From an uncultured Anaerolineaceae bacterium (GTDB taxonomy: Bacteria; Chloroflexota; Limnocylindria; Limnocylindrales; CSP1-4), in NCBI GenBank assembly GCA_964626755.1, contig CAZVGO010000050.1:203960-267959 (forward strand): a stretch of DNA of 64,000 nucleotides. The letters are read 5' to 3'. The translations under genes were made by a program, and so were the position numbers. Positions 1 to 51,368 of this stretch are shown here, piece after piece. Under the pieces are notes generated by a model. The model was given only the letters and a program-made list of their open reading frames with translations. It did not search any database and was not told where the DNA came from. The stretch's first letter is position 1; each line of letters starts with the position of its first letter.

Positions 1-455
1 TCGCTGTCCGCAACAGCGGCGCGCACGCCGTCGTGGAGGGGATCGGCCCGCACGGCTGCGAATACATGACCGGAGGGGTCGTCGTGGTCCTCGGCCCGGT
101 CGGCGCGAATTTCGGCGCGGGAATGACCGGCGGCCGCGCCTACCTGCACGATCCTTCCGGCCGCCACGCGGCAGCGCTGCACGGCCCGAGCGTCCGCGCA
201 ATCCGCCTCGCGGAGGCCATCGCCGAGCGCGAGAACGGGGATGTGCTGGCGCAAGAACTCCGTGAGCTCGTCGAGGACCACCGCGGCGCCGGATCGGAGC
301 TGGCAGCGCGGCTACTGGCCGAGGGTGGTCTCGAGGACGCCGTCTGGCTTGTCGAGCCCATCGCCACGCCGCTACCGGCCGCCGACGCGGCGAGTCCGCG
401 CGTCGCCCAGCCGGCTGTCTCCGAGCCTGCCCGACCGTTCGTCGCCGCAGGCTGA
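1..455 (+). CDS. gltB: Glutamate synthase large subunit, C-terminal fragment (gene starts upstream of window)
   Basis: The in-frame translation from base 3 reads ...[40 protein letters not shown], the GxxGG-repeat C-terminal domain typical of GltS alpha subunit. No start codon falls inside the window. Confidence 0.75.
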
Positions 456-5522: not shown

Positions 5523-6727
5523 ACGGGGCTGAGGCGGCGGACGAGCGCATCGGCGAGTGCGTCGAAGTCTGACGGCTCGTTGTAGAGGTGGGCGGAGATC
5601 CGGAGGAGCATCGCGCGCGGGCCATTCGTCGACCTCGCCGCGAGGACCGGCCACGCTCCGACCGGGACTTCGATCCGGTCCTCCCCGGCCAGCGTGTGGG
5701 TTAGCGCGACGGCCGTTTCGTCCGACGGCGACAGCGGCAGCTCGAGCGAGGCTATCGACCCGAGCAGGTTCTCCGGCACGGACTGCTCGATCCCGAGCGC
5801 TTCCGCGAGCCGCCTCCGACCCCCCACCGCAAGCTCGTGGTTCGCGGCCCGGATCGCCGGCCAGCCGCCACCGTCCGGGGCGAGGTCCGCGACGAGGCTC
5901 ACGGCGTCGGCGGCGGCGAGGTAGGGCGTCGGGTCCACGGTGCCGGGCCAATCGAACTCGAGCCGGAATCGCGATCGCTCACCAATGTCCGCCCGCGGGT
6001 CGTTCGCGCCGTGCGACACGACGAGCGGATGGATCGCGGCCCGCCGGTCCGCGCGGACCCACAGGATCGCGGAGCCCTTCGGCCCGCACAGCCATTTGTG
6101 ACCGTTGCCCGTCCAGTACGCGGCGCCGAGGGTGTCGATCTCGACCTGGACCATCCCCGGCGCATGAGCCGCGTCGACGAGCGTGTCGACGCCGCGCTGT
6201 TCGAGTTCGTGGACGATCTGGGCGATCGGGAAGACCAGCGCAGTCGGGCTCGTGACGTGGCTGATCAGCGCGAGCACAGTCCTCGATGTGACCGCCGCGA
6301 GGATCGCCTCGACGATCTCGCCCGCATCGGCGACGGGAAACGGAACACGCGCGATGACGACACGCGCTTCGTCGCGGCGGGCCGCCGCGGCAAGCGCATT
6401 GAGAGTCGCGTTGTACTCGTGATCCGTCGTCAGCAGCTGGTCACCTGGAGCGAACCGGAGTGATCCGAGGACCGCCGACACGGCGCTCGTCGCGTTGGGG
6501 ACGAACGCGATCCCGTCCGGGTCACCGCGGAGGAACGCGCCGAACGTCGTCCGAGCCGCGTCGAGACACCCCTCCAGCTCGCGGCTGAAGAACCGGACCG
6601 GGTCGGCCTCGATCCGGTCGCGCCAGGCGGCCTGGGCCGCCAGCACCGGCTCCGGGCAGGCACCGAACGAGCCGTGGTTGAGGAACGTGACGGTCGGGTC
6701 GAGGCGCCACGCGCCCGTGGTCCGCAC
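5507..6727 (-). CDS. Class V PLP-dependent aminotransferase (isopenicillin-N epimerase / cysteine desulfurase-like)
   Basis: FLNHGSFGACP...TTDHEYNA...SHVTSPTALVFPI...GNGHKWLCGPKGSAILWV, a fold-type I class V signature. GTG start directly abutting the stop of the upstream gene. Confidence 0.75.
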   Translation of the reverse strand: MRTTGAWRLDPTVTFLNHGSFGACPEPVLAAQAAWRDRIEADPVRFFSRELEGCLDAARTTFGAFLRGDPDGIAFVPNATSAVSAVLGSLRFAPGDQLLTTDHEYNATLNALAAAARRDEARVVIARVPFPVADAGEIVEAILAAVTSRTVLALISHVTSPTALVFPIAQIVHELEQRGVDTLVDAAHAPGMVQVEIDTLGAAYWTGNGHKWLCGPKGSAILWVRADRRAAIHPLVVSHGANDPRADIGERSRFRLEFDWPGTVDPTPYLAAADAVSLVADLAPDGGGWPAIRAANHELAVGGRRRLAEALGIEQSVPENLLGSIASLELPLSPSDETAVALTHTLAGEDRIEVPVGAWPVLAARSTNGPRAMLLRISAHLYNEPSDFDALADALVRRLSPVQPVD

Positions 6728-7528
6728 TCAGGCAGGCGACGTTCGGGGAAGCAGGTCCAGCGTCTCGCCGTGGACGGCGACGACCCGTCCGCCGCCGACC
6801 GGATGCCAGTGGGCCCGGCCCTCCCCGAAGACGTGCCATGGCCCGTCCGCGCCGTCTGTCGAGATGACCCCCGTCCGCTCGTCGAGTCCGAGGCGCCCGA
6901 AGCCTGCCGTCTCGAGCTCATCGATCGCCGTCGCCCACGCGTCCAGGTTCGCCTCGAACATCGCGAAGTGCGGCGCGACGAAGACTCCCGGCACAAGGTT
7001 GAGCGCGGGCAGCCAGCCGGTCGGCGTCCAGGTCCGCCCGGCGAGGCCCATCGCGCCGGCGCTCGCACCGGCGAGGACCGCGCCCCGTGCATGTGCGGCG
7101 AGGATCGACCCCCAGGCGAGGGTCCCCTCGAGGAGCCCCGGGACCGTGTCGGGATGGCCGCCCGGCAGGTAGATGAGGTCGGCCGCGCTCAGCCTCGCGG
7201 CGAGCACCGGATCCTCGGCAGTGTCGCGATCGACGACGAGGGCGGCCTCGACCCGCGCCGGGACGCCGACCCGCGCCGCCGCTCGCTTCAGCCCGGCGAT
7301 CGCCTGCTTCGCCGACGCGCTCGGGCGCTCCCGGGCGGCCGCGGCCGGGACGACGACGATCCGCAAGACACCGTCCGATTCCGGGCCGCCGCGGCGTGCC
7401 TGCGCCGCGGACGACGGCAGCGCCGCCACCACGAGTGCGTCGAGGAACGGCTCGTCGCCCGGCTCGAATTCCCCGCCGCCATGGAGCGCGATGCGGCCGG
7501 GCGGCGTCGCGGCCCCGAGGCTCGTCAT
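6728..7528 (-). CDS. Peptidase S51 family (cyanophycinase / dipeptidase E-like)
   Basis: IALHGGGEF...LIYLPGGHPD...LAGASAGAMG, the Ser-nucleophile GxSAG motif. The longer 335-aa ORF is a low-complexity upstream extension; the start is placed at the internal Met of MTSLGAA. Confidence 0.6.
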   Translation of the reverse strand: MTSLGAATPPGRIALHGGGEFEPGDEPFLDALVVAALPSSAAQARRGGPESDGVLRIVVVPAAAARERPSASAKQAIAGLKRAAARVGVPARVEAALVVDRDTAEDPVLAARLSAADLIYLPGGHPDTVPGLLEGTLAWGSILAAHARGAVLAGASAGAMGLAGRTWTPTGWLPALNLVPGVFVAPHFAMFEANLDAWATAIDELETAGFGRLGLDERTGVISTDGADGPWHVFGEGRAHWHPVGGGRVVAVHGETLDLLPRTSPA

Positions 7529-7863
7529 CGCGACCCGCCCCCGGCCTGGCGGACCTCGTCCTCCGGCGGCGTGACGTTCTTGATCGGCGGCGCCACCGGC
7601 CGGGGCGGCCGTCCGAGGAGTCGATCGATCCCGTCGCGCAGGTGGAAGTAGGGCAGGACGGCGAGGACGAGGATGACCGGCAGGAGGATCCGCGCCCGCC
7701 CCCCGGTCGCGACCACGACGAACCCGATCAGCCACAGCGCAAGGAAGTAGGCGGCCACCAGGCCGGCGGACGCACCGCGCTGGAAGAGCCGGCGCGTCGG
7801 GATGAGCGCAAGCAGCGCGAGGACGAGGATCGCGGCAATGAGGGCCGGCGGCAGGAACGGCAC
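7525..7863 (-). CDS. Small hypothetical integral membrane protein (3 predicted TM helices)
   Basis: Hydrophobic segments ALIAAILVLALLALI and YFLALWLIGFVVVATG, and LLPVILVLAVLPYF. Overlaps the S51 gene start by 4 nt, consistent with an operon. Confidence 0.4.
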   Translation of the reverse strand: MPFLPPALIAAILVLALLALIPTRRLFQRGASAGLVAAYFLALWLIGFVVVATGGRARILLPVILVLAVLPYFHLRDGIDRLLGRPPRPVAPPIKNVTPPEDEVRQAGGGSR

Positions 7864-9746: not shown

Positions 9747-10726
9747 TCGTGGCTCCGGGCGACGTCGCGGTCGCCGGTAAGCTCGAGGTAACGGTCCTCC
9801 AGCCCGGCACCGGCTCGCAGCTCCGCGATCAGCGTATGGTGCTCGCCCGCCCACGCGGCCACCGCGGCGACGAGCGCGGGATCCGGGACCACGCCGGTGA
9901 TGACGACCGCCTCGCCGCTGCCGGTGTCCGCCGTGACCGAGAGCCTCGGCCAGCGGGCGGCAAGCGCGCCCTGGAGGACAGACGAGTCGATCGACCTGTC
10001 GAACCGGATCCGGAGCAGCGCCCGTCCGCTCGCCGCGACCTCGGCCGGCGTACCGAGCGCGACGATCCGGCCGCGGTGGAGGATCGCCACGCGGTCGGCG
10101 AGCCGCTCGACGTCGACGAGGTCGTGCGTGGTCAGCAGGACGGACACGCCGTCGTCCCTCAGCCCGCGGACCAGCTCCCGGGTGACCGCGCGCGCCGCCG
10201 GATCCATGCCCGCGGTCGGCTCGTCGAGGATGGCGAGCTCGGGCCGCCCCACGAGCGCCAGCGCGAGGCCGAGTCGCTGCCGCTCGCCGCCGGACAGGCG
10301 ACGGACCGGGGTCCGGGCGGCGACCCGCAGGCCGACGAGGTTGAGGAGCTCCTCCGGGTCGCGCGGATCCGCATGGAGCCGGGCGAACAACTGGAGCAGC
10401 TCGCGCGGTTTGGCGCGCGGGTCGAGACCGCCGCCCTGGAGCATGAGGCCCACCCGGGCGCGCAACACGCGGCCGCCGCGAGCCGGATCAGTGCCGAGGA
10501 CCGACACCGTCCCGCCGTCGGCCCGCCGGTAACCCTCGAGGATCTCGACGGTCGTCGTCTTGCCGGCGCCGTTCGGGCCGAGAAGCGCAAAGACCTCGCC
10601 GGCGGGGACCTGGAATGACACCCCATCCAGCACCGTTTGCTCGCCGTACCGCTTGACGAGCCCGTCGACCTTCACGGCCGGGCCGGACGTCGCCCTCGGC
10701 TCGGCCGGGCGGACCGCGGCCGTCAC
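9743..10726 (-). CDS. ABC transporter ATP-binding protein (partner of ABC-2 permease)
   Basis: Walker A GPNGAGKTT, signature LSGGERQRL, Walker B ILDEPTAGMD, H-loop. GTG start overlaps the tlpA stop (GTGA). Confidence 0.85.
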   Translation of the reverse strand: MTAAVRPAEPRATSGPAVKVDGLVKRYGEQTVLDGVSFQVPAGEVFALLGPNGAGKTTTVEILEGYRRADGGTVSVLGTDPARGGRVLRARVGLMLQGGGLDPRAKPRELLQLFARLHADPRDPEELLNLVGLRVAARTPVRRLSGGERQRLGLALALVGRPELAILDEPTAGMDPAARAVTRELVRGLRDDGVSVLLTTHDLVDVERLADRVAILHRGRIVALGTPAEVAASGRALLRIRFDRSIDSSVLQGALAARWPRLSVTADTGSGEAVVITGVVPDPALVAAVAAWAGEHHTLIAELRAGAGLEDRYLELTGDRDVARSHE

Positions 10727-11259
10727 GGCACGATCGTCGCGTACTGGCGCTCGAACACGGCCTCGGTCACCTCGCCGATCTGGATCGTCCGGAGGATCCC
10801 GTCCACGTCGATGAAGTACGTCTGTGGCCGGGCGGCGACCCGGTAGGCGGACCGGATCTTCTCACCTGGATCGATGACCGTTGGCCAGTCCGCCCCGAGG
10901 GCGGCGACGAAGTCGCGGGCCGGTTCCGGTGGGTCCCACATCAGCACGCCGACGATCGCCAGCCCGTCGGCGGCATGCTCCGCGAGCTTCGTCTTGAACA
11001 GCGGGAACTCGTCACGGCACGGGACGCAGCCCGGCCCCCAGAAGTTGACGATCACCGGGCGGCCGCGGAGGTCGGCCAGCCTGAACTCGGCTCCGTCGAG
11101 GGTGACCCCCGCGATGTCCGGGGCAGGTTGATCGCGGGCGATCACCCCTCCGGCGGCAGGGTCGGTCAGCCGGACGATCGCGACGACCAATGCCGTCGCG
11201 GCAACGGCGACGGCGAGAGCGAGGAGGATCGGGCGTCGAAGCGTGATGGCCTTCGTCAC
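10723..11259 (-). CDS. tlpA: TlpA/ResA-like membrane-anchored thiol:disulfide oxidoreductase (thioredoxin fold)
   Basis: N-terminal TM anchor (ILLALAVAVAATALVVAIV), then VIVNFWGPGCVPCRDEFP (CxxC). GTG start overlaps the stop of the upstream cupredoxin gene. Only the last 179 aa of the 499-aa ORF are real. Confidence 0.75.
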   Translation of the reverse strand: MTKAITLRRPILLALAVAVAATALVVAIVRLTDPAAGGVIARDQPAPDIAGVTLDGAEFRLADLRGRPVIVNFWGPGCVPCRDEFPLFKTKLAEHAADGLAIVGVLMWDPPEPARDFVAALGADWPTVIDPGEKIRSAYRVAARPQTYFIDVDGILRTIQIGEVTEAVFERQYATIVP

Positions 11260-12341
11260 CCGCCCGCGGTGAGCGTTCCCGTCATGTTGGCGTGGAACGT
11301 GCAGAAGAAGGTGTACGTTCCCGCCGCCAACGGCGGGACGTCCTCTACGACCTGGCCGGGACCCGTGACGTCCACACCGTTGAAGATGATCCCCGAGTCG
11401 CCCCGGATCGAGACGTCGTGGGGGACCCCGGTGTCCCGGTTGTCGAACGCGATCGTGAACGGCGCATCTGCCGGCGCGGTCACGTCGGCCTTGTCGAACT
11501 CGATGTTCTGCGCGACGAGCACGATGTCCCCCACGAGGGGCGGACCCGACTCGCCGGGCGGCGGACCCGACGCGCCGGGCGGCGGACCCGACGCGCCCGG
11601 TTCCTCGCCACCGACGACGGCCGGCCCGCGGGGTGGCAAGATGCCGAGATCGACGACGACGGCGAACAGCACGAGGACCGCGAAGACCGTCAGGACGCGT
11701 TTCGGCCAACCGGGCGCCGACAGGCTCTCGAGGTGGCCTGTCTGGTCCGCCTCGATCTGCTTGACGTACTCCTGGCGCGCATCGAACAGCCAGCCGACCA
11801 GGGTCGCGATGAGGAACAGGATCCCGACCAGCAGGAGCCAACCGCCGAACACGAGCCCGAAGAAGAAGACCATGAGGGCGAGTGACGCGAGCACGGGCCG
11901 GAACGATGGCCCCGGCAGGTGGACGCCGGGCGGCGGGGTCCCGTGGATGACCGCCGGCAGCCGCTCGGCGTGGACCACCCGATCGTAGTCGGCGAGCGCC
12001 TCGCGACCCCAGTACAGCAGCGAGATCGCGAGCGCCACGATGCCCACCCAGATCCACGAACCCCCGACCACGAGCCCGAAGAGCAGGAGGAACGTGCCGA
12101 TCGACACGAAGATCGGGGCGAATGACGGCCCGGGCAGATGGACGCCCTGCGGCGGAAGGGGAGTGACCCGCCGCTTCCCGCGCCGCGTCGGGCCGGCGGT
12201 CGCGAACTTCCGGATCGTCCACAGGAGCCAGAGCACGACGATCCCGAGGAGCCCGACCGGGAGGAGCGCGATCAACGCACCCCAGTCGGGAATGACGAAT
12301 TGGGAGATGAAGTCGAGGATCGAGTTCCAGATTTCGTTCAC
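11256..12341 (-). CDS. Membrane-anchored type-1 copper (plastocyanin/amicyanin-like) cupredoxin with duplicated N-terminal two-helix module
   Basis: C-terminal HDV...YTFFCTFHANMTG gives a His/Cys/His/Met type-1 Cu ligand set. The N-terminus carries two copies of P-x-GVHLPGPSF-x-P, each followed by two TM helices. A GASGPPPGASGPPPGESGPP linker joins the halves. GTG start. Confidence 0.7.
   Translation of the reverse strand: MNEIWNSILDFISQFVIPDWGALIALLPVGLLGIVVLWLLWTIRKFATAGPTRRGKRRVTPLPPQGVHLPGPSFAPIFVSIGTFLLLFGLVVGGSWIWVGIVALAISLLYWGREALADYDRVVHAERLPAVIHGTPPPGVHLPGPSFRPVLASLALMVFFFGLVFGGWLLLVGILFLIATLVGWLFDARQEYVKQIEADQTGHLESLSAPGWPKRVLTVFAVLVLFAVVVDLGILPPRGPAVVGGEEPGASGPPPGASGPPPGESGPPLVGDIVLVAQNIEFDKADVTAPADAPFTIAFDNRDTGVPHDVSIRGDSGIIFNGVDVTGPGQVVEDVPPLAAGTYTFFCTFHANMTGTLTAGG
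11538..11610 (-). repeat. In-frame tandem repeat (about 3 imperfect units of 24 bp) encoding GASGPPPG linker
   Basis: cggacccgac-tcgccgggcg-gcggacccga-cgcgccgggc-ggcggacccg-acgcgcccgg is directly visible. It lies inside the cupredoxin CDS. Confidence 0.6.
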
Positions 12342-12569: not shown

Positions 12570-13220
12570 CTACAGGATGTAGAGCGTCGAGAAGAGCGCG
12601 ATCCAGACCACGTCGACGAAGTGCCAGTAGATCGACGTCGCCTCGACGGCATCGTGATGGCGGGCGCTGAACTGTCCGGCCATCCCCCGGTAGAGCACCA
12701 CGCCCAGCATGATCACCCCGCCGAAGACGTGGGCGCCATGGAACCCGGTGAGCGTGTAGAAGGTCGTGCCGAACACCCCGTCGGCGAGCCCGAATCCGAG
12801 GGTCGTGTAGTCGTAGGCCTGGCCAAGCAGGAAGACGATCCCGAGGATCAGCGTCACCGCGATGTTCCGGATGAAGCCGGTCCGGTTGTTCTCCCGGATC
12901 GCCCAGATCGCGAACTGGCACGTGAAGGAGCTCAGGACGAGGATCACGGTCAGGCCGAGGGCCAGCCAGGGCTCGGCCTTGAGGTGGTGGAAATGCTCCG
13001 CGAGCTCCTCGGTGACCGCGGGCGGGCCGGGCGGCCAGCTCGCCGCGGTCGCGCGGACGTTGAAGTAGGCGGCAAACAGCCCGGCGAAGAACATGACCTC
13101 GGAGGTGATGAACAGGATCATCCCGAGGACCGGGTTGCTGATTCCGCCCCGCTCGTCGTGGGCGAGGGCCGCGACCGGGCTGTGTTCGTGGATGGCCACG
13201 GCGTGGGCGTCGCCGGTCAT
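12570..13220 (-). CDS. ctaE: Cytochrome c oxidase subunit III
   Basis: FFAGLFAAYF...TGFHGAHVFGG...SIYWHFVDVVW, conserved CoxC motifs. The start is placed at Met of MTGDAHAV, overlapping the ctaD stop (ATGA). Confidence 0.8.
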   Translation of the reverse strand: MTGDAHAVAIHEHSPVAALAHDERGGISNPVLGMILFITSEVMFFAGLFAAYFNVRATAASWPPGPPAVTEELAEHFHHLKAEPWLALGLTVILVLSSFTCQFAIWAIRENNRTGFIRNIAVTLILGIVFLLGQAYDYTTLGFGLADGVFGTTFYTLTGFHGAHVFGGVIMLGVVLYRGMAGQFSARHHDAVEATSIYWHFVDVVWIALFSTLYIL

Positions 13221-14923
13221 GGCTCCTTCCTCGTTCGCCGCGCAGGAGCCGGCTGCGCCGCGGCGGTCGGGTCGGTCGGGACGGGTAGCACAACCCGCGC
13301 GTGGGTTCGGCCGTGGCGCAGGTCGAAGAGCGGACGCTCCGAGCGGATCTCGGGCAGGCGATCGAAGTTGTACGGCGGGGGCGGCGAGGTCGTCGCCCAT
13401 TCGAGCGTGTTGCCCTCCCACGGGTCGTCGCCGGCGATCGCCCCGTTGCGGAGCGAGACGAACACGTTCCACAGGAACGGCACGGTGCTCACCGCGATGA
13501 CGAACCCGCCGATCGTCGCAGCGAGGTTCAGCTCGTTCCAGCCGGCCGTGCCCGCGTAGTCGGCGATGCGCCGGGGCATGCCCTGCAGGCCGAGGACGTG
13601 CATCGGGAAGAACGTCAGGTTGAACCCGATGAGCATCAGCACGAACTGGAGCTTGCCGAGGCCTTCGCTGAGCATCCGGCCGGTCATCTTCGGGAACCAG
13701 TAGTAGATGCCGGCAAAAACGCCGAACACGGAGCCGCCGAACAGCACGTAATGGAGATGGGCGACGACCCAGTACGTGTCATGGAGCGCAAAGTCCACCG
13801 GCACGGCCGCGCTGAATGCCCCGTTGATCCCGCCGATGAGGAACATGGTCAGGAAGCCGAGCGCGAACAGGAGCGGCGTCGACAGGGTCAGCTTGCCGCG
13901 GAACAGGGTGAAGATCCAGTTGAACATCTTCACCCCGGTCGGGACCGCGATGAGGAACGTCATCAGGCTGAAGAACGGCAGGTAGACAGCCCCGGTCGTG
14001 AACATGTGGTGGGCCCACACCGAGAACCCGAGGGCGCCGATCCCGGCGGTCGCGAAGATGAACGCCTTGTAGCCGAACAACGGCTTTCGGGAGAAGACCG
14101 GCAGGATCTCGCTGATCATCCCCATGGCGATCAGGATCATGATGTAGACCGCCGGGTGGGAGTAGAACCAGAAGACGTTCTGCCACAGGACGGCATTGCC
14201 GCCGGTCGCCGGGTCGAAGAAGTGACCGCCGTAGTTCCGGTCGATGAACAGCATGATCAGGGCGCTCGTGAGGACCGGCGTGGCCATCAGTACGAGCACG
14301 CTCGTGACGAGCGCCGTCCAGACGAGGATCGGCATCCGGAAGAGGGTCATGCCGGGCGCCCGCATCTTGAAGATCGTGACGATGAAGTTGACGGCGCCGA
14401 GGATCGAGGCGGTGCCGATGAGCATGAGCCCGACCAGCCAGAGGTCCTGGCCCGGCCCGGTCGAGGCGAGCGGGCGGTCCTGGGCCAGCGGGCTGTACGC
14501 CGTCCAGCCTGTGGACGCAGCCCCGCCGGCGAGGAAGCCCGAGCCCATGAGGATGCCGCCCAGCGGCAGCAGCCAGAACGACAGCGCGTTGATCCGGGGG
14601 AACGCCATGTCCGGCGCCCCGATCTGGAGCGGCACGATGTAGTTCGCGAAGCCGGCCAGGATCGGGATCACGAACAGGAACAGCATGAACGAGGCGTGCA
14701 TCGTGAAGGCCTGGTTGTAGAGGCCCTCATCGGACAGGAACTGCAGCCCCGGCACGGCGAGCTCCGTGCGAACGACCAGCGCGAGGATGCCGCCCAGGAA
14801 GAAGAAGACGAACGAGTTGACGATGTAGAGGATCCCGATCTTCTTGTGATCGGTCGTCGTCAACCACACGTACAGGCCGCTCCGATAGCCGGCGGCGGCG
14901 GGCGTCAGCGCAGTGGTCGCCAT
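13217..14923 (-). CDS. ctaD: Cytochrome c oxidase subunit I (heme-copper oxidase catalytic subunit)
   Basis: 568 aa with 12 TM helices. Contains WFYSHPAVY, HHMFT and the His ligands VAHLHYVLFGG. Confidence 0.9.
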   Translation of the reverse strand: MATTALTPAAAGYRSGLYVWLTTTDHKKIGILYIVNSFVFFFLGGILALVVRTELAVPGLQFLSDEGLYNQAFTMHASFMLFLFVIPILAGFANYIVPLQIGAPDMAFPRINALSFWLLPLGGILMGSGFLAGGAASTGWTAYSPLAQDRPLASTGPGQDLWLVGLMLIGTASILGAVNFIVTIFKMRAPGMTLFRMPILVWTALVTSVLVLMATPVLTSALIMLFIDRNYGGHFFDPATGGNAVLWQNVFWFYSHPAVYIMILIAMGMISEILPVFSRKPLFGYKAFIFATAGIGALGFSVWAHHMFTTGAVYLPFFSLMTFLIAVPTGVKMFNWIFTLFRGKLTLSTPLLFALGFLTMFLIGGINGAFSAAVPVDFALHDTYWVVAHLHYVLFGGSVFGVFAGIYYWFPKMTGRMLSEGLGKLQFVLMLIGFNLTFFPMHVLGLQGMPRRIADYAGTAGWNELNLAATIGGFVIAVSTVPFLWNVFVSLRNGAIAGDDPWEGNTLEWATTSPPPPYNFDRLPEIRSERPLFDLRHGRTHARVVLPVPTDPTAAAQPAPARRTRKEP

Positions 14924-14933
14924 CCGAGCTCCC

Positions 14934-16061
14934 TTACTGGACCGTCAAGATGCCGGTCATCGCCGGGTGGAAGGTGCAGAAGAACGTGTACGTGCCGGCC
15001 GCGAGCGGCGGAACGTTGTCGACGACTCTGGCGGGACCGGTCACATCCTGGCCATTGAACACCAACCCGGTGTCGTTGCGAATCGCGACGTCGTGCTGGA
15101 TCCCGGCGTCCCGGTTGTCGAAGTCGATCGCGAACGGCTCGTCCGCGGGAGCTTCCAGCGCGGCCTTGTCGAACGCGACGGCGGACGCGACAAGGACGAG
15201 GGTAACGGCGGGCGGCGCCGCGCTGCCGGACGGAGCGGGCGTGGCCCGCGCCTTGTCGACCTGCTCCTGGAGCCACGTGTCGAACTCCGCCCCGCCGAGC
15301 GCATGGACCTGGAACGTCATCGTGCGGTGGCCGACGCCGCACAGCTCGGCGCACTGACCGCCGAACGACTGACCGGCCTCGTCCTCGTTCAGGCGGAACT
15401 CGAACCGGTTGACCTGGCCGGGCACGACGTCGCGCTTGTACAGGAAGCGCGGCACGTAGAACGCGTGGATGACGTCCGGGCTCTCGAGCTGGACCTGGAC
15501 GTTTCGCCCGACCGGCACGCTCAGCCCTCCGCCGGGACCCTCCGGGATGACCTGGGTGAACGCCTCCGTGACGCCATCCTCCGCGAGGTAGACGAACTGC
15601 CAGTTGAACTGGCCGGCGATCGCCTTCACTCTCAGGTCCGGCGTCGCCGAGACGGCCTCGACGGTGTTGAGGCTTTGCCACGAGATGTAGAACAGGAATG
15701 CCACGATGATCGTCGGGATGAGCGTCCACGAGATCTCGGCGATGTTGTTGCCGTGGGTCTGGGGCGGCAGCTCGTTGTCGCCCGGCTTGCGCCGGTAGCG
15801 AATGACGCTCCAGACGATGAGCCCCTCGACGAGGAGGAAGATCGCGGCCGCGAACCAGAAGACGATGTCGTAGAGGTTCCGGATCTCCTGCCCCTGCGAG
15901 GTCGCGGCCTTGAGCGGGAACATGCTATCGAGCGCTCTCCGGAGGCCGCCCAGCACGTCAGTCCCGAGGACGACGATCAGCGCGATGAGCGCCAGGGCAG
16001 CGACCACGAGCCCGATCGCGATTGCGCCGGGCGCGGGTCTTGACCGTGGGCGACTCGACAT
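14934..16061 (-). CDS. ctaC: Cytochrome c oxidase subunit II (CuA) fused to a C-terminal type-1 copper cupredoxin domain
   Basis: Two N-terminal TM helices and the CuA site H...CAELCGVGHRTM. After an Ala/Pro linker comes a plastocyanin-like domain ending YTFFCTFHPAMTG. There is no CxxCH heme-c motif. ATG start with an AGGAC RBS. Confidence 0.8.
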   Translation of the reverse strand: MSSRPRSRPAPGAIAIGLVVAALALIALIVVLGTDVLGGLRRALDSMFPLKAATSQGQEIRNLYDIVFWFAAAIFLLVEGLIVWSVIRYRRKPGDNELPPQTHGNNIAEISWTLIPTIIVAFLFYISWQSLNTVEAVSATPDLRVKAIAGQFNWQFVYLAEDGVTEAFTQVIPEGPGGGLSVPVGRNVQVQLESPDVIHAFYVPRFLYKRDVVPGQVNRFEFRLNEDEAGQSFGGQCAELCGVGHRTMTFQVHALGGAEFDTWLQEQVDKARATPAPSGSAAPPAVTLVLVASAVAFDKAALEAPADEPFAIDFDNRDAGIQHDVAIRNDTGLVFNGQDVTGPARVVDNVPPLAAGTYTFFCTFHPAMTGILTVQ

Positions 16062-16223
16062 CGGGTGTCCTCGGTGATCTCGGCGCCGCCAGGACCAGGC
16101 GGGCCTCCGGGGAGTTCGTCAGGGCGTCCGGCGGGACGGCCGGACGCGGGCATTCTACCCGGACGGCGTGGCCGGCGCGCGCGTCGGCCGGTGATCGGAC
16201 TCACACAGCGGGTTCGGGAGACA

Positions 16224-17270
16224 ATGCGGCCGATGGCCGTTCTCCGAACCCTCGCCGCGTCCGCGGCCGCAGCCCTGCTGGCGATCGCCTGCAGCGCGCC
16301 GGTTTGGGCCCATGGGACGGCCGACGTCGGGCCACCGGACGCGGCCGCATTCCTGTTCGGCTGGACGTTCGAGCCGCTCGTCGCGATACCGTTGCTCGTG
16401 GCCGCGCTGGCCTGGATCGCGGCGGTCCGGAGGGTGAACGCGGCGCACCCGGCGAACCCGGTGCCGCGCGCGCGGAATGTCGCGTTCCTCGGGGGCCTGT
16501 TCGCGATCGCCGTTGCGTTGCTCTCCGGCATCGAGCGCTACGACACCGTGCTCTTCTCGGTCCACATGGTCCAGCACATCATCCTCACCCTGGTCGCGCC
16601 ACCGCTCATCGCCCTCGGTGCCCCGATTACCCTGCTCCTCCGCCTCGCGCGACCCGAGACGCGGCGGCGGTGGATCCTGCCCGTGCTCCACAGCCGGGTC
16701 GTCCGGGCGCTCTCCTTCCCGGTCGTCGCCTGGGTGCTGTTCGCGGGCGTCATGTGGGCGACCCACTTCTCGGCGGTGTTCGACCGCGCGCTGGAGGACC
16801 CGCTCGTCCACTACGTAGAACACGCGGCATACCTCGGAGCCGGGTTCCTCTTCTGGTGGCCGGCCATCGGCCTCGACCCGACGCCGTGGCGGATGAGCCA
16901 CCCCGTGCGGGCGCTGTACGTGTTCCTCCAGATGCCCCAGAACACGTTCCTCGCGGTCGCGATCCTCTCGGCGACCACCCCGTTGTATGCGCATTACGCG
17001 ACGCTCGCGCGATCGTGGGGCCCGAGCCCGCTCGCGGATCAGCAGGCGGCGGCCGGGATCATGTGGTTCGTGGGCGATCTGCTGTTCCTTGCCGCGATCC
17101 TCGGCCTTGTGGCGGCGTGGATGCGCCACGAGGAGCGCTCCACGGCTATCGCTGACCGGCGGGCGGACACGGCCCGCGCCGGAATGACGGCACGCGAGGC
17201 GCGCCAAGCGGAGCGGCTGGCCGAGGAGCGGGGGAGCGCGGCTTCCCCCAGCGAGCCCCAATCGAGGTAG
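16224..17270 (+). CDS. ctaG: Caa3-type cytochrome oxidase assembly factor CtaG-like polytopic membrane protein
   Basis: Multi-TM protein with conserved His-containing segments (HMVQHIILT, VHYVEHAAY). Divergent from ctaC. The upstream ORF-track extension (from 16065) overlaps the ctaC start and promoter and is rejected. Confidence 0.55.
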   Translation: MRPMAVLRTLAASAAAALLAIACSAPVWAHGTADVGPPDAAAFLFGWTFEPLVAIPLLVAALAWIAAVRRVNAAHPANPVPRARNVAFLGGLFAIAVALLSGIERYDTVLFSVHMVQHIILTLVAPPLIALGAPITLLLRLARPETRRRWILPVLHSRVVRALSFPVVAWVLFAGVMWATHFSAVFDRALEDPLVHYVEHAAYLGAGFLFWWPAIGLDPTPWRMSHPVRALYVFLQMPQNTFLAVAILSATTPLYAHYATLARSWGPSPLADQQAAAGIMWFVGDLLFLAAILGLVAAWMRHEERSTAIADRRADTARAGMTAREARQAERLAEERGSAASPSEPQSR

Positions 17271-24214: not shown

Positions 24215-24505
24215 ATGACGTATGTGATCGCCGAGCCGTGCATCGACCTGCTGGACCTCTCGTGCGTGTCGGTCTGCCCGGTCGATTGCATTCATTACGA
24301 GGAAGGCGTCGACCGCAAGCTCTTCATCGACCCGAACGAGTGCATCGACTGCGGCGCGTGCGAACCCGAGTGCCCGGTGACTGCGATCTTTCCCGAGGAG
24401 TCGCTGCCGCCCGAGTGGGCGAAGTACACGCCGATTGACGCGACCTGGTTTGTCGACAAGGCCGCTGCCCGGGCGTCAGTCGACGAGCTCAAACCGCGCG
24501 CCTGA
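24215..24505 (+). CDS. fdxA: 7Fe ferredoxin ([3Fe-4S][4Fe-4S], FdxA-type)
   Basis: CIDLLDLSCVSVCP (C-x7-C-x3-CP) and CIDCGACEPECP (C-x2-C-x2-C-x3-CP). Confidence 0.85.
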   Translation: MTYVIAEPCIDLLDLSCVSVCPVDCIHYEEGVDRKLFIDPNECIDCGACEPECPVTAIFPEESLPPEWAKYTPIDATWFVDKAAARASVDELKPRA

Positions 24506-42112: not shown

Positions 42113-42613
42113 GTGAGTGATCTCTCCGAGCGACGCGTGGCGACGCGCGTTCCCAACCTCGTCGACAGCCGGCTCAAGCTGGTAAGCCGGCGGGAGCCCG
42201 TGACCGTTCCGCCGGGCACGAGCCTGGCCGACTGCGTCGGTGCGATCCAGCGCTCGGGGACGGGCGATTCGGTCTTCGTCACGGCACCCGACGGGCGCCT
42301 GGCCGGCATCCTCACCGAGCGCGACATCTTCGCCCGGCTCGTCGGCGGGGACGTCGACCTGGGCCGGCCCGTCGAGACGCTCATGACGACCAGGCCCCAG
42401 CACCTCCATCTGGACGAGACGGTCCGGGACGCAATCGAGCTGATGCAGACCGGACGCTATCGGAACGTGCCGTTACTCGATGACGACGACATGCTCGTCG
42501 GCGTCGTCCGCCCGCAGGACATCCTCAAGTACCTCGCCGAGGCCTTCCCGGAGGAGCTCCTCAACCTTCCTCCGCGGCCGCACCAGCTGATGAGGAAGCC
42601 CGAGGGCGGATGA
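42113..42613 (+). CDS. CBS-domain pair protein
   Basis: Two CBS motifs (VFVTAPDGRLAGILTERDI and VPLLDDDDMLVGVVRPQDIL). GTG start. Its stop overlaps the korA start. Confidence 0.65.
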   Translation: MSDLSERRVATRVPNLVDSRLKLVSRREPVTVPPGTSLADCVGAIQRSGTGDSVFVTAPDGRLAGILTERDIFARLVGGDVDLGRPVETLMTTRPQHLHLDETVRDAIELMQTGRYRNVPLLDDDDMLVGVVRPQDILKYLAEAFPEELLNLPPRPHQLMRKPEGG

Positions 42614-44466
42614 CGACCGAGACCAGGCCGCCCGAGATCGAGGTCCGTGACCTCGAGCGGGTCACGATCCGTTTCGCGGGTGATTCCGGCGACGGGATGC
42701 AGCTGACGGGAACCCAGTTCACCCGGACCGCCGCCGTCTTCGGCAACGACATCAGCACCCTGCCGGACTTCCCGGCGGAGATCCGCGCCCCGGCGGGCTC
42801 GCTGCCTGGCGTGTCGGGGTTCCAGATCAGCTTCTCGAGCACGGACATCCATACGCCGGGCGACGAGCCGGATGTGCTGGTGGCGATGAACCCGGCGGCG
42901 CTCAAGACGAACATCGGCGACCTGCCGGCAGGCGGTGCATTGATCGTCAACAGCGACGCGTTCGGCCCGCAGAACCTGAAGAAGGCCGCGTACGCATCGA
43001 ACCCGCTGACCGACGGCTCGCTCAAGCACGTCACGGTCTTCGAGGTCCCGATCTCGACCCTCAATGCGCGGGCCCTCGAGGGCCTCGACATGACCTCGAA
43101 GCAGGTCGACCTGACGAAGAACTTCTTCGCCCTCGGGCTGATGTTCTGGCTCTACGAGCGGTCGATGGACCCGACGCTCCGCTGGATCGACGAGAAGTTC
43201 TCGAAGCGGCAGGTGGTCGCGGAGGCGAACAAGCGGGCGCTCAAGGCGGGCTACGCGTTCGGTGAGACGACCGAGATCTTCCACACTCACTACCGGGTCG
43301 CCCCCGCGAAGCTGGGCCCGGGCACATACCGCAACATCACCGGCAACGAGGCCACCGCGCTCGGCTTCCTCGCTGCCTCGAAGCTCGCCCACCGCCCCCT
43401 GTTCTACGGCAGCTATCCGATCACCCCCGCCTCGGACATCCTCCACCAGCTCTCGGGGTACAAGAACTTCGGGGTCAAGACGTTCCAGGCGGAGGACGAG
43501 ATCGCGGCGATCGGGGCGGCGATCGGGGCGAGCTACGGCGGCGCGCTCGGGATGACCGCCAGCTCCGGCCCGGGGATCGCCCTGAAGAGCGAAGCTCTCG
43601 GCCTGGCGATCATGGTGGAGCTGCCGCTCGTCGTCGTCGACGTCCAGCGGGCCGGCCCATCGACCGGGATGCCGACGAAGAACGAGCAGGCGGACCTCCT
43701 CCAGGTGATGTTCGGGCGCAACTCGGACTCGCCCGTCCCGATCGTCGCGCCGGCGACACCCGGCGAGTGCTTCGATTACGCGATCGAGGCCTGGCGCATC
43801 GCCCTCAAGTACGTCACCCCGGTCGTCTACCTGTCCGACGCGTTCCTCGCCACTGGTGCCGAGCCGTGGCGGATCCCGGCGCTCGCCGACCTGCCCGACA
43901 TCGGGGTTGACAACTGGACGGACAAGGCGACGTTCCAGCCGTACGACCGCGACCCGGTGACGCTCGCCCGGAAGTGGGCGATCCCAGGCACGCCAGGGCT
44001 GGAGCACCGGATCGGCGGGCTCGAGAAGGCCGACATCAGCGGCAACGTCAGCTACGACCCGGACAATCACCACCGGATGCAGCTCCTCCGCGCCGCCAAG
44101 GTGGCAGGGATCGCCAACGACATCCCGGACCTCGTCGCGCACGGCCCGGCCCGGGGTGACCTGCTGGTCCTCGGCTGGGGTTCGACCTACGGGGCGCTCC
44201 GTTCGGCGGTCGAACGGCTGCAGGCCGACGGCCGGAGTGTCGCCCACGCCCACATCCGTCACCTGAACCCGTTTCCGCGGAACCTCGGCGAGGTCCTCGA
44301 GAGCTATCGCCGGGTGCTCATCCCGGAGGTCAACCTGGGCCAGCTCTCGATGCTCATCCGGGCCCGCTTCCTCGTCGACGCGGTCGGCTACAACCGTGTC
44401 CGGGGAAAGCCGTTCCGGATCTCCGAGATCGAGGCCGAGGCCGTCCGGCTGCTGGAGACTCCATGA
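42610..44466 (+). CDS. korA: 2-oxoglutarate:ferredoxin oxidoreductase alpha subunit (KorA/KGOR large subunit)
   Basis: IRFAGDSGDGMQLTG (PFOR gamma/alpha fused architecture), YPITPAS and GMTASSGPG. Same organisation as the mycobacterial KorAB. Confidence 0.85.
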   Translation: MTTETRPPEIEVRDLERVTIRFAGDSGDGMQLTGTQFTRTAAVFGNDISTLPDFPAEIRAPAGSLPGVSGFQISFSSTDIHTPGDEPDVLVAMNPAALKTNIGDLPAGGALIVNSDAFGPQNLKKAAYASNPLTDGSLKHVTVFEVPISTLNARALEGLDMTSKQVDLTKNFFALGLMFWLYERSMDPTLRWIDEKFSKRQVVAEANKRALKAGYAFGETTEIFHTHYRVAPAKLGPGTYRNITGNEATALGFLAASKLAHRPLFYGSYPITPASDILHQLSGYKNFGVKTFQAEDEIAAIGAAIGASYGGALGMTASSGPGIALKSEALGLAIMVELPLVVVDVQRAGPSTGMPTKNEQADLLQVMFGRNSDSPVPIVAPATPGECFDYAIEAWRIALKYVTPVVYLSDAFLATGAEPWRIPALADLPDIGVDNWTDKATFQPYDRDPVTLARKWAIPGTPGLEHRIGGLEKADISGNVSYDPDNHHRMQLLRAAKVAGIANDIPDLVAHGPARGDLLVLGWGSTYGALRSAVERLQADGRSVAHAHIRHLNPFPRNLGEVLESYRRVLIPEVNLGQLSMLIRARFLVDAVGYNRVRGKPFRISEIEAEAVRLLETP

Positions 44467-45530
44467 CCGAATCGACCAACAACGGAGCGGTGCAACCAGC
44501 TCTCAGCCCCGAGAACGCGGAGGTCATCCAGCTCACCCGGAAGGACTTCGTGTCCGACCAGGAGGTCCGCTGGTGCCCCGGCTGCGGCGACTACTCGATC
44601 CTCGCCCAGACGCAGAAGGTCATGCCGGACTTCGGCTACCCGAAAGAGAAGATCGTCTTCGTCTCCGGGATCGGCTGCTCGGGCCGGCTGCCGTACTACA
44701 TGAACACGTACGGGTTCCACACGATCCACGGGCGGGCCCCGACGCTCGCGACGGGCCTCAAGGCGGCACGGCCCGACCTGATGGTCTGGGTGATCACCGG
44801 CGACGGCGACGCGCTGTCGATCGGTGGCAACCACGTCCTCCACTCGATGCGCCGCAACGTCGACTTCAAGATGATCATGTTCAACAACCGGATCTACGGC
44901 CTCACCAAGGGCCAGGCGTCACCGACGTCGGAGTTCGGGAAGCGCACGAAATCGACGCCGGCCGGGACGGTCGACACGCCGATCCAGCCGCTGACCGTCG
45001 CCCTCGCAGCCGAGGCGTCCTTCGTCGCCCGCGCGGTCGACACGCACACGGAACACCTGCAAGGGACGCTCAACCGGGCTGGCTTCCACAAGGGCTCCGC
45101 GTTCGTCGAGGTCCTCCAGAACTGCAACATCTTCAACGACGGGGCGTGGCGGGACTTCACCGACCGCGAAGTCCGCGAGGACCGGATGCTCGTGCTCGAG
45201 CACGGCAAGCCGATGATCTTCGGCAAGGACCGCGACAAGGGGATCCGGTTGTCCGGACTCCATCCGGAGGTCGTCCAGCTGGGCGTTGGCGGGGTGACCG
45301 AGGCCGACCTGCTGGTCCACGACGAAAAGGCCGCGGAGCCGTACCTCGCGCTCATGCTCTCGCGGATGTTCTGGCCAGACTTCCCGGTTCCGGTCGGCGT
45401 GCTTCGGGCGGTCCCGCGCCCGACCCACGACCAGCTCATCGAGGCTCAGCTCAGCGAGGCTGTCCTCGGGTCGGGTGAGGGAGACCTGGCGGCGGCGCTC
45501 AACAGCGGGGAGACCTGGACGGTCGAGTAG
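44463..45530 (+). CDS. korB: 2-oxoglutarate:ferredoxin oxidoreductase beta subunit (TPP-binding)
   Basis: WCPGCGDY, GIGCSGR and the GDGD TPP motif. Overlaps the korA stop. Confidence 0.85.
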   Translation: MTESTNNGAVQPALSPENAEVIQLTRKDFVSDQEVRWCPGCGDYSILAQTQKVMPDFGYPKEKIVFVSGIGCSGRLPYYMNTYGFHTIHGRAPTLATGLKAARPDLMVWVITGDGDALSIGGNHVLHSMRRNVDFKMIMFNNRIYGLTKGQASPTSEFGKRTKSTPAGTVDTPIQPLTVALAAEASFVARAVDTHTEHLQGTLNRAGFHKGSAFVEVLQNCNIFNDGAWRDFTDREVREDRMLVLEHGKPMIFGKDRDKGIRLSGLHPEVVQLGVGGVTEADLLVHDEKAAEPYLALMLSRMFWPDFPVPVGVLRAVPRPTHDQLIEAQLSEAVLGSGEGDLAAALNSGETWTVE

Positions 45531-48902: not shown

Positions 48903-51368
48903 TCAGGTGCCCGCGCTGGCGACCCGCCCCTCCATCGGGCGCGTCGGTGTCGTGCCGAATCTCGGCGGGCGGAATCCGCGAAGACGGAGAGCGTTCGAGA
49001 CGACCGTGACCGACGAGAGAGCCATGGCCGCTGCCGCGATGATCGGATCGAGCAAGACCCCTGTGAATGGGTACAAGGCCCCGGCAGCGAGTGGGATGAG
49101 CGCGACGTTGTAGGCAAAGGCCCAGAACAGGTTCTGCTTGATGTTCCGCATCGTCGCTCGCGACAGCGATATCGCAGTAACGAGAGCACGAAGGTCGCCG
49201 CTCATGAGCGTTACGGCGCCTGACTCGATCGCCACATCCGTGCCCGTCCCGATCGCGATCCCGACGTCGGCCTGGGCGAGGGCGGGGGCGTCGTTGATGC
49301 CGTCCCCGACCATGGCCACGAGCTTGCCCTCGCCCTGGAGCCTGCGGACCTGGGCCGCCTTCTCGTCCGGTCGCACGTCGGCAAGCACCCGCTCGACGCC
49401 CGCCTGGCGGGCGATCGCCCGCGCGGTCGCCTCGTTGTCGCCGGTCATCATCGCGACCTTGAGTCCGAGCCGGCGGAGCTCCGCGACGGCTTCCACCGAT
49501 CCGGCCTTGAGCGTGTCGGCGATGGCGATGACTCCCGCGGGCCGACCGTCGACGGCGACGATCACCGGTGTCTTTCCGGCGGCGGCGAGCTCGTCCGCCG
49601 CGGCGACCAGTGGGCCGGGATCGATATTCCGGCTCTCGAGAAAGCCGGGCCGGCCGATGAGGACGTCGCGCCCCCCGACAGTCGCGGCGATCCCCTGGCC
49701 GAAGACCGCCTCGAATCGGGTTGCCTCTCCGACGTTTTGCCCCCGTTCGTCACGGGCGAACCGGACGATAGCCTCCCCGAGCGGATGCTCGGAGCCTCGC
49801 TCGGCCGCAGCGGCGAGGCCGATCAGCTCCTCCTCGCCCGGTGCGTCGGGCGCCCGAATGACGTCGGTGACCCGGGGCTCGCCCTCGGTCAGCGTGCCGG
49901 TCTTGTCGAGGACGACGGCCCGGACGTTGTGGAGCCGCTCGAGCGCCTCGGCGTTTCGGAACAGGACGCCGTTCTCGGCCCCCTTGCCCGTCCCGACCAT
50001 GATCGACGTCGGCGTGGCCAGCCCGAGCGCACACGGGCAGGCGATGATGAGAACCGCCACGGTGTTGAGCAGCGCCAGGTTGAAGGCCGGCTCCGGCCCG
50101 AAGACGAACCAGCTGACGAACGTCAGCGCTGCGATCCCGAGAACCGCCGGAACGAAGTAGCTCGTGACGAGATCGGCGAGGCGCTGGATCGGGGCCTTCG
50201 ATCCCTGCGCGTCCTGGACGAGCCGGACGATCTGGGCGAGCACCGTGTCGCGACCGACCCGTGTCGCCTCGAAGCGGAAGCTGCCCGACGTGTTGATCGT
50301 CCCGCCGATGACCTCCTCGCCCGGCTCCTTTGTGACGGGGATCGACTCCCCGGTGACCATGCTCTCGTCGACCGCGGAGCGGCCATCCCGGACGATGCCG
50401 TCGACCGCGATCTTCTCGCCAGGCCGGACGATGACGACGTCGCCTCGCACGACCTGCTCGATCGGGACGTCCCGTTCGTTGCCTCCTCGAAGGACGCGCG
50501 CGGTCCGCGGCTGCAGACCGATCAGCTTCTTGATCGCGTCGGACGTGTGGCTCCGGGCCCGGGCCTCGAGGAACCGGCCCAGGAGGATGAGGGTGATGAT
50601 CACAGCCGATGTGTCGAAATAGAGCGGCAGCTGCGCCCCCGTCGCGACCCCGGCGGCGCGGAAGAAACCCGGGAACAGGATCGCGGCGAGGCTGTAGAAG
50701 TAGGCGGCCGAGGTGCCTACGGCAATGAGCGTGTTCATGTCCGTCGCCCGATGGCGAGCGACGTTCCAGGCGCCCTTGTAGAACGGCCAGCCGGCGTAGA
50801 ACTGGACCGGGGTGGCGAGCGCGAGCTGGAGCCACGGGTTCGTGAGGAAAGCCGGGAGGAACGGCGCGATCGTCATCGAGGCGAGCCCAGCGACCAGCGG
50901 AATTGTGAGGGCGGCGGCCACCATCAACCGCCGGCGGGTCTCGACGAGGTGGCGCTGCTGGTAGCTCGTCTCGGGCGTGCGCGCCGCCTCATGATAGTCG
51001 GCATGGGGCTCGGCCCCGACGGCTTCACCGGCTCTCACCGGCGTGGCGTCGACGAGCAGCTTCGCCTCGTAGCCCGCGGCCTCGACGGCGCCGATCAGCT
51101 GCTCGCTCGTGACGTCCGGACGGGCGACGACCGAGGCGCGCTCGGTGGCGAGATTGACGTTCGCCTCTTCGACGCCGTCAACCTTGCGGAGATAGCGCTC
51201 GATGCGGTTGACGCACGAGGCGCAGGTCATGCCCTCGATGTCGAGAGCCAGCGTCCGCGGCCCGGCAAGGCGGCTTTCCGGCGTCCGGAAGACGATCTCG
51301 ACCGACTGATTGGCGGTACCACCCGACGTCGTCATCGGTCGGGTGTCACCAGCGCAGGGATGCGTCAC
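48903..51368 (-). CDS. copA: Copper(I)-translocating P1B-type ATPase
   Basis: HMA domain GMTCASC, a CPC transmembrane motif ([13 protein letters not shown]), [15 protein letters not shown], and a C-terminal second metal-binding region. Start is the GTG at 51368 or the ATG at 51335. Confidence 0.9.

Follow-up and report, generated by a model that had tools for sequence, protein, structure and literature searches.

The known electron donors of heme-copper oxidases are cytochrome c, either soluble or fused to the enzyme, and quinol; some archaea and Chloroflexus-type bacteria use separate blue-copper proteins. In the caa3 oxidases, such as those of Thermus thermophilus (PDB 2yev) and of Bacillus subtilis with its CtaC, the donor is a cytochrome c domain placed C-terminal to CuA on subunit II. 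The nearest precedent for a blue-copper donor on an oxidase subunit is the fusion of halocyanin to subunit IIa (CbaD) in haloarchaeal ba3 oxidases (Prunetti et al. 2011, PMC3128077, citing Hemp & Gennis 2008), where the donor and a membrane subunit of the oxidase form one covalent unit. The gene analysed here, coxB-cup (14934-16061, minus strand), codes for a protein of 375 amino acids (aa) with the Pfam domains COX2_TM, COX2 and Cupredoxin_1, i.e. a heme-copper oxidase subunit II with a predicted type-1 (T1, blue) copper cupredoxin at its C-terminus. It lies in a 64,000-nucleotide stretch of DNA, called the window throughout (assembly GCA_964626755.1, contig CAZVGO010000050.1, positions 203,960 to 267,959), from an uncultured Anaerolineaceae bacterium of soil that GTDB assigns to Chloroflexota, Limnocylindria, Limnocylindrales, CSP1-4; the Limnocylindria (Ellin6529), a lineage of soils and fresh waters, are abundant there but almost entirely uncultured, their sole isolate, Ellin6529, being reported as lost (bioRxiv 10.1101/2021.08.23.457424). 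A preliminary description of the window, made from the letters alone, had proposed that this C-terminal domain stands where caa3 oxidases carry their fused cytochrome c.

CoxB-Cup has what characterizes a subunit II, namely transmembrane (TM) helices, an outer-side CuA domain of cupredoxin fold with the full CuA ligand set, and adjoining ctaD and ctaE genes, and it scores 167.9 against the NCBIfam CoxB equivalog model TIGR02866, for which the curated cut-off is 147.7. Pfam matches cover residues 51-127 for COX2_TM (expect value, E, 9e-12), 181-253 for COX2 (E 1.5e-13) and 288-374 for Cupredoxin_1 (E 4.4e-10). The membrane region (residues 1-135; 15657-16061, minus strand, as are all parts of the gene) was delimited from the AlphaFold model, a hydropathy scan and the COX2_TM match and comprises an N-terminal signal or anchor helix (14-32) followed by two canonical TM helices, the model itself placing membrane helices at 11-32, 55-88 and 106-135. 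The preliminary description, which saw a normal CoxB N-terminal part with two TM helices and a CuA site, was correct as to the COX2_TM and COX2 parts and the complete CuA site; the helices number three, the N-terminal one being extra. The CuA domain (residues 136-273; 15243-15656), defined by COX2, invariant alignment columns and Foldseek, carries the motif CAELCGVGHRTM, the ligands H199, C237, E239, C241, H245 and M248, and a conserved W154. It is joined by an Ala/Pro/Ser linker, TPAPSGSAAPPAV (residues 274-286; 15204-15242), to the cupredoxin (residues 287-375; 14937-15203), which was assigned from Pfam, alignment, profile and Foldseek and in which H323, within IQHDV, precedes a C-terminal CTFHPAM that forms an amicyanin-type C-x2-H-x2-M loop (C362-x2-H365-x2-M368). 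Both the linker and the domain had been foreseen, the latter at about 100 aa; their actual sizes are 13 aa and some 89 aa.

The full-length AlphaFold model, with a mean predicted local distance difference test score (pLDDT) of 83.8 and a predicted template modelling score (pTM) of 0.58, shows after the membrane helices a CuA β-domain, a helix at 257-273, the low-confidence linker (pLDDT <50 at 277-280) and an eight-stranded β-domain at 287-374, this cupredoxin part being modelled at pLDDT 91-97. A Foldseek search of the PDB with the whole model returns subunit II of T. thermophilus caa3 first (2yev_B, 35% identity), along with mycobacterial CtaC. No solved structure with the CoxB-Cup architecture was found in that search, in which the subunit II part alone was matched, at a query-normalised template modelling score (TM-score) of at most 0.48.

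By all computational tests the C-terminal domain is a type-1 copper cupredoxin, which would be expected to bind copper. The ligand pattern H...CTFHPAM, with the C-x2-H-x2-M spacing of amicyanin and plastocyanin, had been read from the translation by eye, and it holds at the places predicted: in an alignment of 51 full-length CoxB-Cup homologs (55-86% identical to the query) all four T1 ligands are invariant, none of them being lost on careful alignment, and so are the six CuA ligands and W154. Some of the aligned members have a ligand loop longer by one residue (C-x2-H-x3-M), and the His, Cys, His and Met are kept in 40 of 40 sampled domains of three kinds, borne by CoxB, by subunit IV and by a complex III cytochrome c. 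Structure prediction with superposition and profile searches alike bear out the assignment. Beyond the Cupredoxin_1 match given above, a profile built from 24 cupredoxin domains finds auracyanin A (2aan, 5.6e-8), amicyanin (7.4e-8) and plastocyanin (4e-7) among PDB sequences; amicyanin (1id2) aligns to profile positions 5-92 with His/Cys/His/Met in register (its MPHNVAF and CTPHPFM opposite IQHDVAI and CTFHPAM), and the match of auracyanin A falls in two separate pieces. Modelled by itself, the domain has eight strands and a pLDDT of 97.9, and Foldseek places amicyanin first in the PDB (E 2.9e-7), with a probability of 1.00 for the best matches, which are joined by a purple cupredoxin of Nitrosopumilus, auracyanins (query-normalised TM-score 0.83-0.88), plastocyanins and a Cupredoxin_1 protein of B. 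anthracis.

The fusion is widespread. The same three-domain architecture is present in 120 of the 120 best database matches (55-100% identity; NCBI, JGI, ENA and Logan), which makes at least 120 clusters; the named members among these best matches are Chloroflexota or "Candidatus Limnocylindrales". When one genome per GTDB species was scanned, 14 Limnocylindria species loci matched CoxB-Cup through residue 375, some of them on contigs longer than 1 Mb. A distant fused CoxB (42% identity) occurs in a metagenome-assembled genome (MAG) labelled Frankiaceae, and its relatives, from Actinomycetota MAGs named Mycobacteriales, Frankiaceae or Frankia sp., make up a second clade of fused CoxB. In that clade, ctaA and ctaB, for the synthesis of heme A, were noticed just upstream of the divergent CtaG and CoxB-Cup operon (L084 5889-7735, L085 7012-8915). 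One might suppose that the fusion is an artefact (a frameshift, a mis-assembly or a chimeric MAG contig) or a decaying, non-functional appendage, given that the source is itself a metagenome-assembled genome and that one related CoxB (L017, described below) is without the domain. The open reading frame (ORF) is nevertheless continuous, with a G+C content at third codon positions (GC3) of 0.92 that is uniform along it and corresponds to the codon bias of real genes in this window of ~70% G+C; the ligands stay invariant down to 55% overall identity; and the architecture is kept as a single ORF, not as a frameshifted separate gene, in the at least 120 clusters, the 14 Limnocylindria genomes and the Actinomycetota clade. 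This conservation across clusters, genomes and clades effectively refutes the frameshift or artefact reading, to which we attach practically no credence.

What the cupredoxin replaces can be read from the nearest CoxB relatives that do not have it, which come from Thermomicrobium, Ardenticatenales, Dehalococcoidia, Thermoflexales, Gaiellales and others. Beyond the "EFDAW" helix, which they share, these proteins continue in a caa3-type tail of ~100-200 aa with a CxxCH motif. Since this tail occupies the same C-terminal position, it supports the idea, already put forward in the preliminary description, of blue copper in place of heme c in a caa3-like arrangement, and the conclusion that a type-1 cupredoxin has taken the place of the caa3 cytochrome c domain in CoxB-Cup is well supported. 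The further proposal of a wire from T1 copper through CuA to heme a within one polypeptide holds for the two copper centres, which share CoxB; heme a sits in CtaD.

CtaD, the subunit I of this oxidase (568 aa; 13217-14923, minus strand; COX1 E 3e-162; TIGR02891 above its cut-off), belongs to the A-family and is overall closest to mycobacterial and actinobacterial aa3 CtaD (E 6e-202). It has YSHPAV in place of FGHPEV, to which it aligns in Mycobacterium smegmatis CtaD, so that the D-channel glutamate is absent and a Tyr-Ser pair is present. Such a pair is the signature of A2-type oxidases such as caa3. The oxidase would work like the caa3 type and yet falls outside it, because the defining heme c domain with its CxxCH motif is absent from CoxB.

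CoxB-Cup stands first in an operon that continues with ctaD, ctaE, a gene for a subunit IV-like protein with a cupredoxin of its own (SUIV-cup, 361 aa) and a gene for a TlpA/ResA-like thioredoxin, ctaG being divergent. The complete cassette (CtaG, CoxB-Cup, CtaD, CtaE, SUIV-Cup and TlpA) is found in 14 of the 14 Limnocylindria loci. The ctaE gene, for oxidase subunit III (12570-13220, minus strand; COX3 E 1.6e-37), encodes 216 aa from an ATG that overlaps the ctaD stop. SUIV-Cup (11256-12341, minus strand; Cyt_c_ox_IV E 1.9e-8, Cupredoxin_1 E 1.3e-9), on whose cupredoxin the preliminary description was silent, consists of a subunit IV-like membrane protein, a 35-aa Gly/Pro linker and a C-terminal type-1 cupredoxin. 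Cyt_c_ox_IV (PF12270), the family of the actinobacterial aa3 subunit CtaF, which is small, has four helices and an HLPxPS motif and is encoded with ctaC/D/E, covers residues 145-187 at 34.9 bits against a cut-off of 26.9, but the protein is duplicated and cupredoxin-fused; read by eye, it has six hydrophobic segments, an internally duplicated CtaF-type unit and two GVHLPGPSF motifs. The second cupredoxin (SUIV residues 271-361; 11259-11531) has H308, C347, H350 and M353, the last three in CTFHANM, and is 69% identical to that of CoxB. The thioredoxin (10723-11259, minus strand), whose GTG start overlaps the SUIV-cup stop, is membrane-anchored, matches AhpC-TSA/Redoxin and ResA, keeps its position in L001-L014, and is probably the thiol reductant in the assembly of Cys-ligated copper sites. 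The divergent gene for the caa3-type assembly factor CtaG (16224-17270, plus strand; Caa3_CtaG E 6.5e-76), whose ORF opens at 16065 with a likely start at 16224, is divergent in all related loci.

The cupredoxins of CoxB and SUIV often resemble each other more closely within one genome (69% identity in the window; L005, L006/L010 and L007 show the same tendency) than orthologs from different genomes do (mean ~50%). In a rough neighbour-joining tree of the 40 sampled domains, each of ~90 aa, the CoxB and SUIV copies often cluster by genome and not by carrier, the complex III copies mostly keep together, and some SUIV copies fall among the latter. This suggests that the two oxidase-borne copies are homogenised, e.g. 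by gene conversion, or are co-evolving. According to a hydropathy scan, reading of the sequences by eye and the positive-inside rule, all three cupredoxins (of CoxB, SUIV and complex III) are predicted to follow an in-to-out helix and to share a side of the membrane with CuA and heme c.

The third of these carriers was found when the domain profile was run against a protein library clustered at 50%, in which 6,131 clusters belong to the cupredoxin family at E <= 1e-3, a number that falls to 2,196 at E <= 1e-10. In protein P0239 (366 aa) a single TM helix is combined with a mono-heme cytochrome c domain (CARCH), which a Ser/Pro linker of ~35 aa connects to a cupredoxin of the CoxB-Cup type, and the combination of Cytochrom_C with Cupredoxin_1 is present in 120 of its 120 best matches (64-100% identity), of which the few that are named are Chloroflexi or Acidimicrobiales MAGs. 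On two long contigs its gene type is the last of an operon that begins with an N-terminal and a C-terminal cytochrome b gene and a Rieske gene (L081 1-2796; L082 7793-11089), and by this gene content the operon encodes a b6c-type complex III. In L082 a gene for a 611-aa Fer4/Pyr_redox_2 (GltD-like) flavoprotein (5961-7796) was seen directly 5' of the cytochrome b gene, overlapping its start, and may be co-transcribed with the complex III operon. Both operons, that of the complex III cytochrome c-cupredoxin and that of CoxB-Cup with SUIV-Cup, are present on one of these contigs, 56.5 kb long and from a relative (ENA ERZ1700618, contig_EHDLDABF_35221; oxidase operon L083), in a neighbourhood syntenic with the window.

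None of the called genes of the 64-kb window contains a CxxCH motif. A donor complex inside it, be it complex III, alternative complex III (ACIII) or a c-type cytochrome, was rejected on this ground, and the donor operon therefore lies outside the window. On the relative's contig the complex III operon is followed by proline dehydrogenase, an ammonium transporter and then gltB, with ~9 kb of genes between, and the window opens (1-455, plus strand, read by eye) with the 3' end of the glutamate synthase large-subunit gene gltB; from this opening and the relative's gene order, the complex III operon is predicted ~15 kb upstream of position 1.

The cupredoxin family is broader than these three carriers and includes many tandem proteins of two to four cupredoxin domains. 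Reading of single members showed a COX2 that ends in a pair of cupredoxins (P0162), fusions to subunit IV (P0256, P0259) and, among P0222, P0121, P0127, P0129 and P0255, cytochrome c with two cupredoxins, stand-alone tandems of three to five domains (one of them from an Actinomycetota MAG) and a DUF3105 fusion. The breadth of the family, with its 2,196 representative clusters at the stricter threshold, speaks for a different reading, in which the T1 domain is the true electron entry site and its reductant is something other than complex III, e.g. a tandem multi-cupredoxin, a stand-alone cupredoxin or an external, periplasmic-side donor such as Fe(II), as in rusticyanin and AcoP. In line with it, a stand-alone 167-aa Copper-bind protein is encoded ~8 kb downstream of the Actinomycetota cassette (L085), which has no qcr genes within 10 kb. 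The simplest partner is nonetheless the complex III of the Limnocylindria, whose cytochrome c is fused to a cupredoxin of the same type and is encoded on one contig with the oxidase, and inspection of the window revealed no genes for outer-membrane or extracellular electron uptake; a reductant other than complex III is accordingly considered unlikely.

The surroundings of CoxB-Cup also bear on the idea that its C-terminal domain is a copper-handling module, a chaperone, store or sensor that, like PCuAC or Sco, would supply copper to CuA or CuB during assembly. The operon contains several assembly factors (the TlpA-like thioredoxin and the caa3-type CtaG), no Sco or PCuAC gene was noticed beside it, and Cupredoxin_1 takes in copper- and iron-handling proteins, FtrB and the B. 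anthracis protein being among the fold matches of the domain. Invariant His/Cys/His/Met in an amicyanin-type loop, however, mark a buried electron-transfer T1 site and not a labile chaperone site, the domain sits where the donor cytochrome c of caa3 sits, and it recurs on the complex III cytochrome c, where there is no copper centre to assemble. With every T1 ligand in place and the same domain also fused to complex III, such a role appears quite improbable, more so than that of an alternative reductant.

On the strength of what was observed (its architecture and fold, the conserved ligands and operon, a domain position equal to that of cytochrome c in caa3, and one contig that also carries the complex III fusion), CoxB-Cup is probably the subunit II of an A-family oxygen reductase with the A2 signature, whose tethered T1 domain replaces cytochrome c and relays electrons to CuA. 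In this model, a short and flexible linker would keep the cupredoxin beside the CuA domain, outside the membrane, where the T1 copper would accept single electrons and pass them to CuA, from which they would proceed to heme a and to heme a3/CuB of subunit I. The 13-residue tether would keep the CoxB cupredoxin near CuA, as cytochrome c is kept in caa3, and the long tethers of SUIV and of the complex III cytochrome c (35-60 residues) would permit shuttling, with a division of labour among the three. The whole path would then run from quinol to the Rieske iron-sulfur (FeS) centre, to heme c, to the T1 copper on complex III, to the T1 copper on SUIV and/or CoxB, and on to CuA, heme a and a3-CuB. 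Amicyanin-type T1 sites and CuA have similar potentials, roughly +240 to +300 mV, and a hop from T1 to CuA is therefore thermodynamically plausible. Every carrier would be membrane-tethered, which would suit monoderm cells, where soluble carriers are not confined by an outer membrane; the lineage has been reported as monoderm and lacking outer-membrane genes (bioRxiv 10.1101/2021.08.23.457424). What we infer from this arrangement is that the domains bind copper and are redox-active, as well as the sequence of the hops and any association into a supercomplex. A bolder version, which we hold only tentatively and consider rather doubtful, is that Limnocylindria, and possibly some Actinomycetota, have an all-tethered blue-copper relay in which three near-identical T1 domains lead, one copper passing electrons directly to the next, from the single heme c of complex III to CuA within an obligate III-IV supercomplex that uses no diffusible carrier, the oxidase copies being kept alike by gene conversion or co-evolution.

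Several points weigh against such a relay between complex III and CuA. Both the binding of copper and the transfer of electrons are predictions from sequences and structure models, and the placement of the CoxB cupredoxin relative to CuA is not confident (the pTM and the linker pLDDT given above). Cupredoxin_1 also includes non-redox and iron-uptake members (EfeO and FtrB, the latter among the fold matches as mentioned). The co-occurrence of the complex III and CoxB-Cup operons rests on one contig, and in the genome studied the complex III operon is not in the window, its position upstream being predicted by synteny. In the Actinomycetota cassette, the CoxB fusion is accompanied by a long duplicated subunit IV without cupredoxin. 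Finally, a MAG of Ca. Limnocylindrus (L017) is without the C-terminal domain that is found in its relative L016, a contrast from which it follows that some lineages may manage without a fused domain.

The CoxB of this freshwater genus is a variant in other ways as well. Its CuA motif, CSAFCG..H..M, has Ala in place of Glu (L016 7791-9077, L017 1152-2132), and the L016 protein ends in a domain of another kind, containing HEF... and CNIAGHYAQGM (C-x4-H-x4-M), whose matches among PDB sequences, to pseudoazurin and auracyanin, are weak (E 0.03-0.07) and which probably represents a second type of fused T1 domain; in L017 the C-terminal domain is cleanly missing at ...MTG/VVAQP.

Elsewhere in the window, the genes recognized by eye include those for phosphoenolpyruvate carboxylase, ABC transporters, a 2-oxoacid:ferredoxin oxidoreductase, a copper ATPase and fatty-acid synthesis. 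The oxidoreductase is an alpha/beta-like gene pair (42610-45530, plus strand), and a small 2x[4Fe-4S] ferredoxin-like gene lies at 24215-24505 (plus strand), both read from their translations. The heavy-metal P-type ATPase (821 aa; 48903-51368, minus strand; by eye), which has an N-terminal metal-binding domain and a CPC motif and is CopA-like, could supply or export copper for a copper-rich respiratory chain.

The pattern across subunit II, subunit IV and complex III suggests that electrons reach oxygen by way of copper centres. In the modular evolution of respiratory chains, a bacterial A-family oxidase with a blue-copper donor on its CuA subunit takes a place that was expected but had not been described, and the point is strengthened by the second copy on subunit IV and the matching copy on complex III. 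A full-text literature search, with most subscription journals outside its reach, found no description of the CoxB-T1 copper fusion or of the complex III cytochrome c-cupredoxin subunit. The database entries encountered for subunit II fusions are all named simply "cytochrome c oxidase subunit II", because of which metabolic reconstructions miss the fusion. CoxB-Cup provides a natural pair of T1 copper and CuA in a single polypeptide for studies of intramolecular electron transfer, and a testable case of the replacement of heme by copper that bears on iron versus copper economy. The fusion is, in sum, an undescribed, widespread and testable rewiring of terminal respiration in abundant uncultured soil bacteria, although not one that would shock bioenergeticists.

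Compared with the systems known from elsewhere, CoxB-Cup is nearest in layout to the caa3 oxidases, with which it shares, besides the position of the donor domain, the caa3-type CtaG, the A2 signature of subunit I and the caa3-type character of its nearest unfused CoxB relatives. In contrast to them, its fused domain is a predicted T1 cupredoxin without CxxCH, a second donor-type domain is found on subunit IV, subunits I and III are encoded by separate genes, and subunit I is nearest to actinobacterial aa3 CtaD. The halocyanin-CbaD fusion differs in being archaeal and of the B-family, and in having the copper protein N-terminal to the helix of a single-helix accessory subunit and not on the CuA subunit; neither further tethered domains, a second or a third, nor a fusion to complex III are described for it (PMC3128077).

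Among the blue-copper proteins themselves, amicyanin of Paracoccus is the top Foldseek match of the domain, aligns with its profile over nearly the full length and has the same C-x2-H-x2-M loop, but it is only ~21% identical and is a soluble periplasmic protein specific for the transfer from methylamine dehydrogenase to cytochrome c551i. The auracyanins of Chloroflexus and Roseiflexus, from the same phylum, are likewise tethered T1 carriers, of respiratory or photosynthetic chains, between ACIII and its acceptors. An auracyanin is, however, a protein in its own right, ~140 aa long, that has a C-x4-H-x4-M loop and is anchored by itself, whereas the domain here has ~89 aa and a C-x2-H-x2(3)-M loop, is built into oxidase and complex III polypeptides, and would be served by a quinol oxidoreductase that is a Rieske/cytochrome b complex and not ACIII; membership in the auracyanins was rejected on account of the ligand loop, the size and the fusion. 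Copper nitrite reductases with a tethered cupredoxin or cytochrome c, such as NirK of Thermus scotoductus (6hbe), which is among both the sequence and the fold matches, also have a donor domain fused to the acceptor copper enzyme, although enzyme and reaction are different and the protein is soluble and does not belong to a proton-pumping oxidase. A further functional analogue is the sulfocyanin of the SoxM complex.

The closest comparison for the proposed relay as a whole is offered by the actinobacterial bcc-aa3 supercomplex with its di-heme QcrC (6hwh, 6adq), likewise of monoderm cells without a diffusible carrier, in which two tethered redox domains bridge the Rieske FeS centre and CuA, and whose CtaD, CtaC, CtaE and CtaF (Cyt_c_ox_IV) are the closest sequence relatives. 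By analogy with it, a III-IV supercomplex is a candidate in this lineage also, and would be of a new type: the actinobacterial bridge consists of two heme c on one complex III subunit, whereas the one proposed here would consist of one heme c and up to three T1 coppers distributed over complexes III and IV, making the relay, if it is real, a copper counterpart of the di-heme cytochrome cc bridge.

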